Source of the DNA: Candidatus Brocadiia bacterium
GTDB taxonomy: Bacteria > Planctomycetota > Brocadiia > CAIUPP01
DNA: 64,000 bases
Direction: 5' to 3'
NCBI GenBank assembly: GCA_050015075.1
Contig: JBEKCB010000003.1
Coordinates: forward strand, 128,001-192,000
Part shown: positions 54,457 to 59,206 of the stretch, one piece after another
Layout of the letters: each line of letters begins with the position of its first letter
How positions within the stretch are numbered: the stretch's first letter is position 1
The notes under the pieces: generated by a model
Database searches by the model: none
What the model was told of the DNA's origin: nothing
The model's input: the letters and a program-made list of their open reading frames with translations, nothing else
Translations under genes and position numbers: made by a program

Positions 54457-54595
54457 GGGCATTATTCTAATCGCAATCGGCGCGGGAATCCACTGCTCTT
54501 CCAGGGGCTTTTGTTGACAATCGCCGGATGCTTTGGGATATTGAGCGCGGCGAGGAACGTTCAACAAAATCAATTATGGGCTATGCGACGCCGCC

Positions 54596-55711
54596 ATGCG
54601 CAAGGAAGCAACATATGCAGCCGCGACCAAAAAAGCGGCTCGTCTGATTGTAAAAGAAAAGAAGACGGAAGCAAGAGCTGTCCTCCAAGATGCTCTAGGA
54701 CGAGCGGTCGCGGCGAAGCAGGAAGGATATGCCTTATTCTTCCAAGGTGAATTGGCGTTCTTGGATGGTGAGCCGCTCAAAGGCTTCGAACTTGAGAAGC
54801 GGGCAAGAGAGCTTAAGCCAAGGTCACTTACAATTCTGCGAACTTTAGGGCTAAAAAGCTTAGCTCTCGGCAGGCTCGCAGAAGCCATTGAACGGTTCGA
54901 TGAGATACTGGCTATTAGGCCTAGAGATGCATGGGCACGGCTTTGCCGCTCGAGTGCCCAACTTAGCATTACCATTGCTGGCTTGAAAACGCACTTCGAT
55001 GAGATCAGTGCCGCGCGCGAAAAGGAGGAGCAAAGGATAAAGCTGGATGCGTGGCGGTCGCTTTCGGCCAGGGCCGCACACCGAATCGGAAATCAACTTT
55101 TCGCCTCCATGGGCGCTTTGCGGACGCTCTCAAAGCTGGACGTCCCCGAAGCACGAGAGGCTGTTGAAGATCTTTCGGGCAACGTAGATAGAATACGAAG
55201 GATCGTGCAGGAGTTTCAGCGTTTCAGCGCAAATGAGGCGCCCAGGTTACTACCAGCTGACATTGCGGTCCTCGTCAGCGATGTCGTACGACGTCACACG
55301 GACTTGAAACCGAACATTGCGCTCTCCTCGCAGGTTCAGGGACCATTTATTTGCGAAATCGACCGCATCCAGTTCGAGCAGGCGCTGGGAGAGCTGCTTG
55401 AGAATGCAATGTTTCACACTAAGCCTGGCGGGGAAATCACTGTCCGTGTCGAGCCGGTTGAAGCGCCGAACGCGCAGAATGTTCGAATCATCATCCAAGA
55501 CACAGGCGCCGGGATACCGCCGCAATCGAAGGAGCGCATATTCCAGGCCTTTTACAGCACCAAGCCGGGCGGCAGCGGTCTCGGGCTTGCCATCGTCCGC
55601 CAGATTGTGGAAAATCACAAAGGAACGATTCGAGAGACAGGACAGGAAGGGGCAGGCGCGCGTTTCGAGATCGTCCTGCCCGTGAAGGCACGCGAGGAGA
55701 GCCGCCAATGA
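54596..55711 (+). CDS. Cytoplasmic sensor histidine kinase with N-terminal TPR region
   Basis: H-box AAHRIGNQL, N-box LLENA, DTGAGIP, F.AFYSTK, GSGLGL; TPR-like helices, no TM. Confidence 0.9.
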   Translation: MRKEATYAAATKKAARLIVKEKKTEARAVLQDALGRAVAAKQEGYALFFQGELAFLDGEPLKGFELEKRARELKPRSLTILRTLGLKSLALGRLAEAIERFDEILAIRPRDAWARLCRSSAQLSITIAGLKTHFDEISAAREKEEQRIKLDAWRSLSARAAHRIGNQLFASMGALRTLSKLDVPEAREAVEDLSGNVDRIRRIVQEFQRFSANEAPRLLPADIAVLVSDVVRRHTDLKPNIALSSQVQGPFICEIDRIQFEQALGELLENAMFHTKPGGEITVRVEPVEAPNAQNVRIIIQDTGAGIPPQSKERIFQAFYSTKPGGSGLGLAIVRQIVENHKGTIRETGQEGAGARFEIVLPVKAREESRQ

Positions 55712-56328
55712 AAGTACTAGCGATTGACGATCAGGCCGAGGCGCTCAAGCAAATCGAGAAGGCCCTTTCCGGCGCCAAAGGTCCCGACGACATGCCGTAT
55801 GAAGTCATGGCGCTGGCGGACCACCACGCGGCGCTGGAACTCCTGACGAGAGAACATTTTGACGTCATCGTCACCGACATGGTTATGGGCAACCAGGAGA
55901 AGGAAGGGCTGGAGATTCTTCGCGAAATGACGGGCAAGTCGCCGATAACTATTGTCCTGACTGCCTATCCTTCAATTCCGAATTGTGTCGCTGCGATGCG
56001 CGCGGGCGCATGGGACTATCTTGAGAAGACGCCTGCAGATGGGAGTGATCCATATGAGATCCTGTTGAATTCTGTGAGCCAAGCATGCCGAGAGCGGCTG
56101 GCAAGGCCTGAGGCCGGCCGCGTGAACCCGGACGCTACATGGGTTAAAGACCACTATGAAGAACTGACGGCAAAGTATGCCGGAAAGATCGTTGCGGTTC
56201 TCGATGGGAAGGTGGTTGACGAGGACGAGAACTACGGAAAGCTGGCGGAACGCGTCAAGCGCGATTACCCTGTTGCCGTGCCTACGCTAGTCTTGGTGCC
56301 GGACACAAAGGTGGATGCAATCGATTGA
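55708..56328 (+). CDS. Response regulator: receiver fused to a DUF5678-like C-terminal domain
   Basis: IDD, VTDMVM, LTAY, YLEK; tail WVKDHYEELTAKYAGKIVAVLDGKVVD. Confidence 0.85.
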   Translation: MKVLAIDDQAEALKQIEKALSGAKGPDDMPYEVMALADHHAALELLTREHFDVIVTDMVMGNQEKEGLEILREMTGKSPITIVLTAYPSIPNCVAAMRAGAWDYLEKTPADGSDPYEILLNSVSQACRERLARPEAGRVNPDATWVKDHYEELTAKYAGKIVAVLDGKVVDEDENYGKLAERVKRDYPVAVPTLVLVPDTKVDAID

Positions 56329-56750
56329 ACAACTTCTGCAACGGCCACAACTACGTTCTTGCGATAAGGCGCGTTCGCCGTACGCCCGCGTCCGAGATCG
56401 TTGTCGAAATGTCAGGCGCTTCCCCGATTTTCCAGCCTGTGTTCGGGAAGGTTGATACGGGGGCTTACCGAACCGTGCTCAACTTCGATACCGCTAGAGC
56501 GCTTGCCATCGCCGACCCGGAGGCAAATTGCATTCGTCGCGGCACCGCGAAGTCAGCAACAGACGAGCCAATCCCTTATTTCGTCCACAGGGTCTTAGTC
56601 CAAATATCAGACAACGGTTGGCCACCGATTCTATTCCCGTTAGAGGCTGCGTTCGCAGAAAAGGTGAAGCGGAACCTTTTCGGCATTGACTGGCTGCAGA
56701 ATCTATGTCTGGCCTTCGATAGCTCCTCCGTACACTTCCTCCGAGACTAA
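56325..56750 (+). CDS. Retropepsin-like (clan AA) aspartic protease
   Basis: GKVDTGA catalytic motif and NLFGIDWL; TTG start overlaps the upstream stop. Confidence 0.8.
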   Translation: MNNFCNGHNYVLAIRRVRRTPASEIVVEMSGASPIFQPVFGKVDTGAYRTVLNFDTARALAIADPEANCIRRGTAKSATDEPIPYFVHRVLVQISDNGWPPILFPLEAAFAEKVKRNLFGIDWLQNLCLAFDSSSVHFLRD

Positions 56751-57130
56751 TCTCATATCGGGCGCGTCAGAGTTGGAGAGCTGACGGAAGCGTCTCCAAA
56801 TATCTGGCGGCCACGGCCGAATCGTATGGTATTCTATTCACAAACCTTCCGCCAGTCCAGAGGCATCCGCGCGGGGCCGGCAACCGCGGGTATAGCGGGG
56901 AGACTATGGCGCCGGCTCCAGTGCATGCCGCGGTTTCAGGCCTTCGATAGCGCGTGAGCCGGGCTTGATCCGGAAAACCCCCACTTAAGCAGGTCCCTCC
57001 GTCGGATTCTTCGGCGGCGCTGCCCGGTACGCCTTTTGCTCTTCCTGGAATGCGCACTTCAGAACGCCCCTGGCTTCAAGGGCGAAAAACCTTCCCTGTC
57101 CAGCCGATGCGCGAACGCGCGGGAACTCGA

Positions 57131-57721
57131 ATGAGAAAGACGACGATTGCGATGGCGTTTTCGGCCGCGCTGATTTCAGCGCCGGCCTGGGCGGGAATCA
57201 CCGGCTCGCCGCACGACCTCTCCAGCCGGCTGGGCACCGGGCAGGTTTGCCTGCCGTGCCACGCGCCGCACGCGGGATTGAATGCTTCGGCCGGGCCGGT
57301 GTGGAACCACGCCTTGTCGAAGGCGAGCTTTACGCAGTTCGGGGCGCCGCTCAAGTTGACGGGCGACTCGGTGCTCTGCATGGGCTGTCACGACGGGGTG
57401 ACGGCGGTGGGCGATTTCAACGTCGCGAGTCCCGCGGTCCGCGTCAGCCCCGACGTGGCGAACCTGGCGATTCAAAAGCTGCCGGGCGCAAATCCCGCGA
57501 ACGACCTGGGGACCGATTTGTCCGGCATCCACGCGGTCAGCGCGCTCTACGAGGCGACGCGCGCCTCCATGAAACCGATTACGGCCCTGGGCCCGCTGCG
57601 TTTGCAGGATGGCAGGGTCGAATGCACCACCTGCCACGATCCTCACAGCAGCCTGTACGGGAAGTTCCTCAGAATGTCGAACGCGCACAGCGCGATGTGC
57701 CTCACGTGCCATGCCGTTTGA
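57131..57721 (+). CDS. Periplasmic tetraheme cytochrome c (doubled-CXXCH type)
   Basis: Signal peptide; CLPCH, CMGCH, CTTCH, CLTCH. Confidence 0.9.
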   Translation: MRKTTIAMAFSAALISAPAWAGITGSPHDLSSRLGTGQVCLPCHAPHAGLNASAGPVWNHALSKASFTQFGAPLKLTGDSVLCMGCHDGVTAVGDFNVASPAVRVSPDVANLAIQKLPGANPANDLGTDLSGIHAVSALYEATRASMKPITALGPLRLQDGRVECTTCHDPHSSLYGKFLRMSNAHSAMCLTCHAV

Positions 57722-57739
57722 GGCGGCGGCCGCGCCGGA

Positions 57740-58451: not shown

Positions 58452-58934
58452 TCAGTCACGGCGGGATCGGCTTTGCTTGGCAGGCCTTGTCGCGCCCTCT
58501 TCGGAAATCGGGTCGAGCACATCCAGGAACGGAAAGCGGCGGAAGTCCAAGTCGTGCGTATAGATGGTCTTGACGCCGTTCTCCCGCATCAGAATCGCCG
58601 TGTGGGCGTCGAATACCAGGTTCCCCGAAATGTCGGGCACTTCGGCGAGGATCTCGGCGACGACCTGGCGGTGACGATCCGTTTCGGCCAGCACTTGGAG
58701 GTTAGATGAGGCGAATAATGCTTCCAGGAACTGCCATGACTGCCCTAAGGTGAAGGGACGCTGCAAGACGCGAGGATGTGTTGTTACGCGCAGGAACTCG
58801 TAAGCAATGCCCCAAGTCACATACCACGCCTTCTGCTGAGCACGCCAGCTTTCGATGAGGCGGCCGCACCTGGCGTTCTCGGGCGCATCCCGGTTGGCGG
58901 CATAGATCAGGATGTTGGTGTCAACGACGAACAA
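58452..58934 (-). CDS. vapC: PIN domain toxin VapC
   Basis: VDTNILIYA, EFLRVTTHPR, DAHTA, T.D.DF.RF. Confidence 0.92.
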   Translation of the reverse strand: MFVVDTNILIYAANRDAPENARCGRLIESWRAQQKAWYVTWGIAYEFLRVTTHPRVLQRPFTLGQSWQFLEALFASSNLQVLAETDRHRQVVAEILAEVPDISGNLVFDAHTAILMRENGVKTIYTHDLDFRRFPFLDVLDPISEEGATRPAKQSRSRRD

Positions 58935-58936
58935 AG

Positions 58937-59170
58937 CTAGCGTTCCATGACTTCATACAGGGCGTCGCGGTCGGCCACATCGACGCGCGCGGCGCCGCCG
59001 TGGAACTGGGGGAGTTTCGGGCGTTGAGCCGTACCCGCGCTCGGCGGTTTTGGAGTGATGAGATCGCGCAGTGCTGCCTCGACCAGCGCAGACATCGTCT
59101 GCCCGCGGCGCGCAGCCTCTCGCTTCAGCGCACGCATCGTCACGTCGCTGATATTCAATGTGGTTTTCAT
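58937..59170 (-). CDS. vapB: RHH/CopG-type antitoxin (VapB)
   Basis: MKTTLNISD..M..LKREAARRG.TMSALVE.ALR. Confidence 0.88.
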   Translation of the reverse strand: MKTTLNISDVTMRALKREAARRGQTMSALVEAALRDLITPKPPSAGTAQRPKLPQFHGGAARVDVADRDALYEVMER

Positions 59171-59206
59171 ATGGTTAACCATATCTTGCAGGCGGCGGGA
59201 TGTCAA
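59169..59206 (-). promoter_or_regulatory. vapBC promoter with palindromic operator
   Basis: TTGACA-17 bp-TATGGT; perfect 16-bp palindrome atatggttaaccatat (59169-59184) covers the -10 box and start. Confidence 0.8.

Follow-up and report, generated by a model that had tools for sequence, protein, structure and literature searches.

A three-gene two-component cassette with a probable proteolytic output, carried on a low-GC island of a Brocadiia bacterium

Introduction

What does a response regulator do when its receiver is followed not by a DNA-binding domain, but by a small domain that elsewhere accompanies aspartic proteases, and when the gene of such a protease overlaps its own stop codon? 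The question is raised by a cassette at positions 54,596 to 56,750 of a 64,000-nucleotide stretch of contig JBEKCB010000003.1 from a Candidatus Brocadiia bacterium (assembly GCA_050015075.1; this whole stretch is called the window below), in which a soluble histidine kinase, a response regulator ending in DUF5678 and a retropepsin-fold aspartic protease-like protein are encoded one after the other. We conclude that the cassette is probably a two-component system with a direct proteolytic output, in which an incoming signal would switch the protease and with it the cleavage of its presumed substrates. Some form of direct coupling between the regulator and the protease is likely.

To our knowledge, retropepsin-like proteases are widespread in prokaryotes and only a few have been studied, namely APRc, RloA and RimB. 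DUF5678 appears to us to be their commonest partner, and we know of no function for it. A full-text search, from which subscription journals and supplementary files were excluded, found no relevant literature on the function of DUF5678 (PF18929), and no account in print of either the kinase-linked receiver-DUF5678/retropepsin form or the plain pair. If the reading given here is true, a direct proteolytic output acting through a new output domain would be added to two-component signalling.

The three genes and their products

The kinase (371 residues; 54596..55711), the regulator (206 residues; 55708..56328) and the protease-like protein (141 residues, with a TTG start; 56325..56750) all lie on the forward strand. 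All three were taken from the list of open reading frames (ORFs), the regulator being assigned by its domain matches and the protease by its predicted fold and motif. The kinase and regulator genes overlap in ATGA at 55708-55711, and the start of the protease gene overlaps the regulator stop codon in TTGA at 56325-56328. Both overlaps can be read off the sequence directly, just as the original prediction, which was made from the DNA letters alone, had described them. The drop in GC (guanine plus cytosine) content that it reported is also present: the GC fraction of the cassette is 0.553, against 0.688 in the 3 kilobases (kb) to the left, 0.635 in the 3 kb to the right and a window mean of 0.652. 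No hydrophobic segment is present in any of the three proteins (the highest 19-residue Kyte-Doolittle mean is 1.25), which are accordingly predicted to be cytoplasmic.

The kinase consists of a short TPR-like N-terminus, a DHp domain carrying H162 and an HATPase_c domain. The last of these is matched with an expectation value (E) of 2.5e-27, while the HisKA match is sub-threshold (E 0.0027). Among 11 aligned kinases of the family, little or no variation is seen at H162 in the H-box, N270, G304/G306, F316/F319 and G326/G328/G330. The highest 19-residue Kyte-Doolittle mean of this protein is 0.97, meaning that it has no hydrophobic stretch. These results agree with the soluble kinase, complete with all its catalytic boxes, that had been proposed. 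The TPR input that had been proposed with it stands only in part. The N-terminus does align with those of relatives bearing strong TPR arrays, but its own TPR matches all fall under the Pfam cut-offs (the best is TPR_2, with E 0.0031 and 18 bits against 27), and TPR is only one of several inputs in the family. Kinases at the related loci range from 297 to 849 residues in length. Of the 10 relatives that were scanned, 4 have a TPR input, 3 have PocR, 2 have no detected input and 1 has PAS only. Because the inputs vary in this way, a TPR ligand is not something that the cassette kinases have in common.

The regulator starts with a receiver (residues 3-108; Response_reg, E 3e-15), the fold of which has a structural match with a Z score of 16.8. 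No variation is seen in its D7, D8, D57, T85 and K107 across 24 members of the family. The tail is recognised by Pfam as DUF5678 (residues 152-199, nucleotides 56161-56304), with E 1.7e-8 and 34.6 bits against a gathering cut-off of 23.2. The match spans positions 1-48 of the 49 in the profile, and the tail scores 37.2 bits in a six-frame search of the genome. Both the intact DD/D/T/K set of the receiver and the identity of the tail, which the original prediction had likened to DUF5678, are thus confirmed. In the AlphaFold2 model of the regulator (predicted local distance difference test, pLDDT, 87) the tail forms two helices, a β-hairpin, a helix and a strand, and it superposes over 65 residues on the model of a stand-alone DUF5678 protein from a cluster that is 92% PF18929, with template modelling (TM) scores of 0.82/0.86, both sides of this comparison being predicted models. 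The linker between the two domains is modelled at low confidence (residues 131-140, pLDDT 69), and P134, D142 and W145 are nonetheless 95% conserved. The Pfam scan detected no DNA-binding family in the tail. The DUF5678 profile found no significant relative among PDB sequences (best E 0.065, over 24 residues), the matches listed by Foldseek and VIA-align for the whole regulator model were all taken up by receiver domains, and a feature-based atlas search with the tail gave no usable match.

The protease carries DTGA at residues 44-47 and FGIDW at residues 119-123. Within its family, 37 of 38 proteins retain D-[TS]-G (as DTGA, DSGA, DTGS or DTGF) and 36 of 38 retain FGxDW. The AlphaFold2 model is confident (pLDDT 91.3), and its Foldseek matches are exclusively retropepsin and pepsin folds, 40 of them at E <= 0.001. 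The top match is APRc of Rickettsia (5c9f, E 8e-6), and others include the RSV, FIV and HIV proteases and DDI1, whose protease domain is also matched by the profile of the family (E 0.0066). The expectation of a single-domain aspartic protease with DTG and FGxD motifs is therefore borne out by the predicted fold as well as by the motifs. In family searches, Pfam gives only a sub-threshold match to PF13975 (17.5 bits against 28.2), and the protein has no NCBIfam match and does not score as a member of TIGR03698 or PF13650; some of its relatives bear precomputed PF13975 or PF13650 matches. It belongs to a subfamily of its own, comprising 29 clusters, which by predicted fold and motif only is classed as a divergent subfamily of clan AA. 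To judge from its conserved residues, the protease is apparently catalytically competent.

Recurrence of the three-gene unit

The regulator has 100 related clusters, the window's own included, with identities of 44-100% and lengths of 128-214 residues; precomputed matches to both Response_reg and DUF5678 are present in 73 of them. Among species-representative genomes, a full-length relative is found in only 3 loci, labelled Anaerolineales (L002), Brocadiia (L003) and Phycisphaerae (L004). Metagenome contigs supply 14 further loci, beyond two copies of the window's own sequence. As one of these loci (L091) duplicates another (L090), 16 distinct related loci are counted. Five other candidates (L060, L064, L130, L138 and L152) were rejected as full-length relatives, being ordinary sigma-54-type regulators of 471-481 residues.

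Of the 16 distinct loci, 15 could be assessed for a kinase, and in 14 of these a kinase core is encoded immediately before the regulator, the exception being L096. A protease gene follows the regulator immediately in all 14 of the 14 loci that could be assessed for it. The architecture that had been put forward as a candidate new system is thus recurrent and not a one-off fusion. The overlap between regulator stop and protease start is also conserved, measuring 4 nucleotides in 11 of 13 junctions and 1 nucleotide in the other two, which suggests coupled translation and a fixed stoichiometry of the two products. At 8 of 11 loci the kinase and regulator genes overlap by 4 nucleotides. One well-supported deep split, between the PocR-type loci and all others, is common to the trees of kinase and regulator, and the tree of the proteases is free of supported conflict. 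Pairwise divergences of kinase, receiver, tail and protease are correlated (r 0.62-0.93), as is to be expected for any co-inherited genes.

What DUF5678 accompanies elsewhere

The DUF5678 profile matches at least 6,055 cluster representatives at E <= 0.001, and has a match in 28 of 401 genomes of the window's phylum. Most DUF5678 proteins are stand-alone and single-copy, with 63-90 residues. We examined 29 DUF5678 loci, leaving aside the window's own, and scanned the downstream ORF in 26 of them; the remaining three downstream ORFs are long and unrelated-looking, and were counted as negative. A Pfam clan AA match (E <= 0.1) is present in the next ORF or in the same one in 18 of the 29 loci, and is above the gathering cut-off in 11. 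In two further loci (L185 and the truncated L166) only a D-T-G-A-D-type motif is seen downstream of DUF5678. The two domains also occur in one chain: L173 is a single ORF of 200 residues with DUF5678 followed by Asp_protease_2, and DUF5678 and a protease are found together in 4 clusters, which by their NCBI names are Planctomycetes proteins. In every case DUF5678 is upstream of, or N-terminal to, the protease. The original prediction had described DUF5678 as a small protein usually encoded alone, just upstream of clan AA proteases, and the 18 loci, with a single-ORF fusion among them, fit that description. Since a clan AA protease adjoins or is fused to DUF5678 in these 18 of 29 loci, the tail of the regulator is best read as a protease-partner domain that gained a phospho-receiver.

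Other modules have been joined to DUF5678 in the same way. Receivers are fused to it in 14 of the 66 long forms that were scanned and in 4 more from the search of regulator clusters, and TPR arrays are fused N-terminal to it in L178, P0173 and P0245. These sensor modules occupy the same position, which would fit a role of DUF5678 as a regulatory adaptor. Unannotated N-terminal extensions of about 150 residues are found on DUF5678 in L164, L174 and L175, with a protease downstream in all three, and in P0184 DUF2281 is joined to DUF5678.

It is worth adding that L178 (601-2067) encodes a protein of 362 residues with five or more TPRs and DUF5678, followed directly by a retropepsin-like protease. 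This is the logic of the window's cassette, with the sensor repeats joined straight to DUF5678 and no phosphorelay between them. In many DUF5678 proteins (P0139, P0140, P0143 and others) the domain itself is repeated two or three times in tandem, and no further domain is recognised.

A proposed mechanism and its alternatives

In the mechanism that we propose, the output of the module would be control of a protein and not of transcription. The cytoplasmic kinase would autophosphorylate on H162 and the phosphate would pass to D57 of the regulator, a transfer with which the adjacency of the two genes and their common phylogeny are in line. The DUF5678 tail would be the dedicated partner of the co-translated protease, in direct contact with it, and phosphorylation would alter this contact and thereby switch the protease. 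As to how, our preferred model, held tentatively and at a little less than an even chance, is that of a mobile two-component module in which the DUF5678 tail holds the protease latent until phosphorylation of the receiver frees it. DUF5678 would then be a trans-acting prosegment that keeps the protease monomers latent, much as in a zymogen, and the freed monomers would assemble into the active homodimer. We favour this model because DUF5678 is always upstream of or N-terminal to the protease, and because most of its members are tiny stand-alone proteins. The receiver-fused form with its own kinase provides an experimental handle on it, as phospho-mimic and phospho-dead mutants should switch the effect of DUF5678 on the protease.

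Several observations weigh against this picture. The direction of the switch is a guess, made by analogy with protease prosegments, and most DUF5678 proteins are tiny and stand alone. The window protease falls under every Pfam cut-off. One related locus (L096) is without an intact kinase, having in its place a PAS protein that ends in a truncated DHp-like stretch and has no ATPase domain; in another (L090, 4618-5037, and identically in L091) the protease reads NMAI instead of DTGA beside an intact PocR-type kinase and regulator, and is either a pseudo-protease or a decaying copy. In 9 of the 29 DUF5678 loci there is no adjacent protease by Pfam or motif. Finally, a second receiver-DUF5678 lineage (L179/L191) has no retropepsin downstream but two family-less ORFs instead, from which it follows that DUF5678 is not strictly tied to a retropepsin. 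In L191 (5375-12714, minus strand) a six-GAF kinase of 1,799 residues overlaps a receiver-DUF5678 protein of 201 residues, followed by ORFs of 235 and 215 residues with no family match. The 235-residue ORF has an H...NC-type motif, its sole PDB match there is a non-significant one to an NlpC/P60 cysteine peptidase (E 0.75), and it may be a different peptidase partner.

The main rival to the latent complex is a model in which the regulator is an activating scaffold, with each tail holding one protease monomer and phosphorylation-driven dimerisation of the receivers building the active site. Such dimerisation is common among receivers, the overlapping genes suggest 1:1 synthesis of the two partners, and the tandem DUF5678 proteins, with their 2-3 copies, would hold two or three monomers. 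The model also suits an enzyme class that, according to the available text of PMC12239564, is active only as a homodimer, the dimer being needed to form the aspartate dyad. The single-copy proteins that make up most of the family have, however, no obvious dimerising part, so that assembly on a scaffold could not be the family's general mechanism, and we regard it as somewhat unlikely here. A different kind of contact is envisaged if the regulator is itself the substrate: the protease would cut its linker, near P134, D142 and W145, or its C-terminal tail, parting the receiver from DUF5678 and either ending or propagating the signal. A flexible linker that is nevertheless so well conserved would fit this idea, and the fused DUF5678-protease forms would need processing if their parts act separately; but the conservation of the linker is equally well explained by docking between the two domains, and we give this reading only a slender chance.

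The coupling might also be absent altogether. DUF5678 could bind nucleic acid or another protein, in the manner of an antitoxin, with the protease merely co-transcribed. This would account for the 9 of 29 loci where a neighbouring protease is absent, and for the varied company that DUF5678 keeps in L183 (where a UPF0175 protein follows), in P0184 (with its DUF2281) and in L191 (with its other neighbours). It is hard to reconcile with the presence of the protease downstream in 14 of 14 family loci, with a start/stop overlap at 13 of 13 junctions and with the existence of single-ORF DUF5678-protease fusions, and no DNA-binding family was detected in the tail by the Pfam scan. We consider it improbable.

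The island and its mobility

Alignment of the junctions with a genome of the same genus (G401) delimits a presence/absence island of about 2.33 kb at 54461..56789. It contains a promoter-like site, the three genes and a 3' tail of about 39 nucleotides, and has no integrase or transposase. In G401 the site is empty: its left flank is 95% identical and ends at the equivalent of window position 54460, and after about 12 nucleotides homology resumes at about 56790. The glycosyltransferase gene on the left (95% identical) and the right flank (84% identical) are there only about 55 nucleotides apart. One DNA contig of sequencing run X12 likewise joins 54460 to 56826. Among 41 genomes, which include G401 (91% complete) and two genomes of the same family (94% and 92% complete), the cassette protease subfamily occurs only in that of the window (G000) and is absent from its 40 relatives. 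At related loci, the GC content of the cassette is below that of both flanks in 9 of 12 cases, with some of the margins being small.

L084 has the cassette too, in one 88%-identical block and with the left junction at the same place, whereas the closer G401 is without it. Because of this, gain in G000 and loss in G401 both fit the data. A foreign origin of the cassette has the better support. Among named genomes, the full-length relative that comes nearest bears the label Chloroflexota, and the Phycisphaerae copy is far more distant, a distribution that points to horizontal transfer, provided that the binning is right. The suggestion that the cassette was horizontally acquired has accordingly gained support, from its low GC, from the empty site in G401 and from its absence in the 40 relatives.

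An imperfect direct repeat of 14 nucleotides (12 of 14 identical; family D10) has its left copy just inside the left border of the island (54463..54476, forward strand) and its right copy about 40 nucleotides outside the right border (56830..56843, forward strand). The right copy can be seen at the empty site of G401 as well. The repeat was rejected as a target-site duplication: repeats of this size are frequent by chance here (44 families), and only its position is of note.

Comparison with known systems

A close relative of the cassette is the pair of a stand-alone DUF5678 protein and a retropepsin-like protease, found in bacteria and archaea, which has the same two domains with DUF5678 first, the same start/stop overlap and occasional single-ORF fusions. 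The window differs in that DUF5678 has become the C-terminal output of a phospho-receiver, with a dedicated histidine kinase in the same unit, and in that its protease belongs to the separate subfamily described above. The gene order and overlap of regulator and protease also resemble those of a type II toxin-antitoxin system.

Among response regulators, RssB and CpdR are adaptors that govern proteolysis with ClpXP, delivering substrates to an AAA+ protease whose gene lies elsewhere. The likeness, as far as the window is concerned, lies in the proposal that the phosphorylation state of a receiver would govern a protease by protein contact and not by transcription, and RssB receiver structures are among the fold matches of the regulator model. 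In the window, by contrast, the proposed partner is a small retropepsin-fold enzyme encoded alongside the regulator in one operon, with DUF5678 as the output domain. For the proposed latency, the nearest parallels are the prosegments of proteases and the transframe/p6* region upstream of retroviral protease, which are short N-terminal or upstream polypeptides. Such a polypeptide could govern the dimerisation and activation of a retropepsin. No homology is implied by this, and DUF5678 in the window is a separate folded domain on another protein, which would be under the control of phosphorylation.

The best structural match of the protease is APRc of Rickettsia conorii (PMC4140852; PDB 5c9b, 5c9d and 5c9f; TM 0.61-0.64), which shares the single-domain clan AA fold and the D-T/S-G motif, at only 13-15% identity. 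RloA and RimB are retropepsin-like proteases of Pseudomonas (PMC12239564; PMC11957791, each as far as the available text goes). Compared with all three, the window protease is predicted to be cytoplasmic, having neither signal peptide nor membrane segment, and is paired with DUF5678 and a two-component system; the link of Rlo to two-component signalling is, in the available text of PMC12239564, a transcriptional one only.

The phage-defence system Detocs is made up of a TPR kinase (DtcA), a lone receiver (DtcB) and a receiver-effector (DtcC), with nucleosidase, endonuclease and transmembrane effectors and no protease among those named in the accessible part of its description (10.1101/2023.01.24.525353). 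As described there, it resembles the cassette in being a compact mobile operon with a cytoplasmic TPR kinase and a receiver with a non-transcriptional output. The island in the window has three genes, without a second, buffering receiver, and its effector is encoded separately from the receiver instead of being joined to it.

A possible role in defence

This likeness bears on the role of the cassette, for which the original prediction had offered a defence, cell-death or signalling module. The cassette could be an anti-phage or abortive-infection module, like Detocs but with a protease effector, or an addiction cassette similar to a toxin-antitoxin pair. It is small and low in GC, and as a presence/absence island it is missing from 40 relatives. 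Its kinase has a TPR-like N-terminus, 4 relatives have TPR kinases, and its receiver carries an output other than DNA binding, as in Detocs according to the same partial account (10.1101/2023.01.24.525353). As to neighbours, L002 has a DarT gene and a Macro-domain gene, L093 and L096 have HNH-AP2 genes, and in the window itself a pair of PIN and ribbon-helix-helix genes is found at a distance of 1.7 kb.

On the other side, PADLOC returned only weak and generic kinase and receiver matches (PDC-M43B, E 1.7e-4; PDC-M60B, E 2.5e-3) and nothing for the protease, the Detocs models of this release being unchecked, and in PHROGs only generic kinase and receiver families were matched. No copies of the cassette were found on viral contigs. 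The flanks of the related loci are not conserved, are mostly housekeeping and hold no recurring defence gene, and a stand-alone buffer receiver like DtcB is absent. The claim of a defence function has thus found no direct support, there being no specific PADLOC match, no viral copy and no consistent defence island, and we think such a role unlikely. It concerns what the cassette is for, and is compatible with the latent-complex mechanism; a cassette that did act in conflict would add a new effector class to such systems. The most far-reaching version, in which DUF5678 is a general trans prosegment of prokaryotic retropepsins and the island is a mobile conflict module whose kinase would sense an intracellular cue, such as infection, and whose phosphorylation would unleash the protease, we judge quite unlikely. 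If true, two-component signalling would here serve abortive infection or a cell-fate decision, with a retropepsin as the effector.

Neighbouring genes and other features

The DarT (a single-stranded DNA ADP-ribosyltransferase) and Macro-domain genes of L002 (6598-8296) form a DarTG-like pair, of the toxin-antitoxin or defence kind, 0.5-2 kb downstream of the cassette and on the opposite strand. Two low-GC relatives (L093, 183-824; L096, 1678-2286) have their homing-endonuclease-like HNH_3 and AP2-domain genes upstream of the cassette.

Within the island, a consensus scan identified a sigma-70-like promoter match at 54514..54542 on the forward strand (TTGACA, 17 nucleotides, GATATT, with an extended TG; 10 of 12 positions), 54 nucleotides upstream of the kinase start. 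It is no more than a pattern match, from a scan that found 3 sites where 0.9 were expected. A contig of 238 nucleotides from an RNA library is identical, with 0 mismatches, to 56197-56434 and spans the regulator/protease junction; it is weak evidence of expression, as such libraries can contain DNA. Contigs of runs X8, X12 and X22 cover the cassette partly in places, and the gaps between them carry no meaning.

The genome of the window holds other retropepsin-like genes. Contig C12 (2850-3488; L192 and L195) has an open frame of 840 residues with two tandem Asp_protease_2 matches, and there are further retropepsin-like loci at L193 and L194; DUF5678 is present in none of them. Downstream of the cassette in the window, by 1.7 kb, the PIN-domain and ribbon-helix-helix proteins (58452-59206) form a VapBC-like pair. 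The alignment with G401 jumps here from the equivalent of about 58368 to that of about 59227, making the pair a second presence/absence difference. L084 lacks the segment at 56760-57730, which carries a multihaem cytochrome c gene (57050-57721; paired CXXCH), and has a rhomboid gene directly after the cassette.

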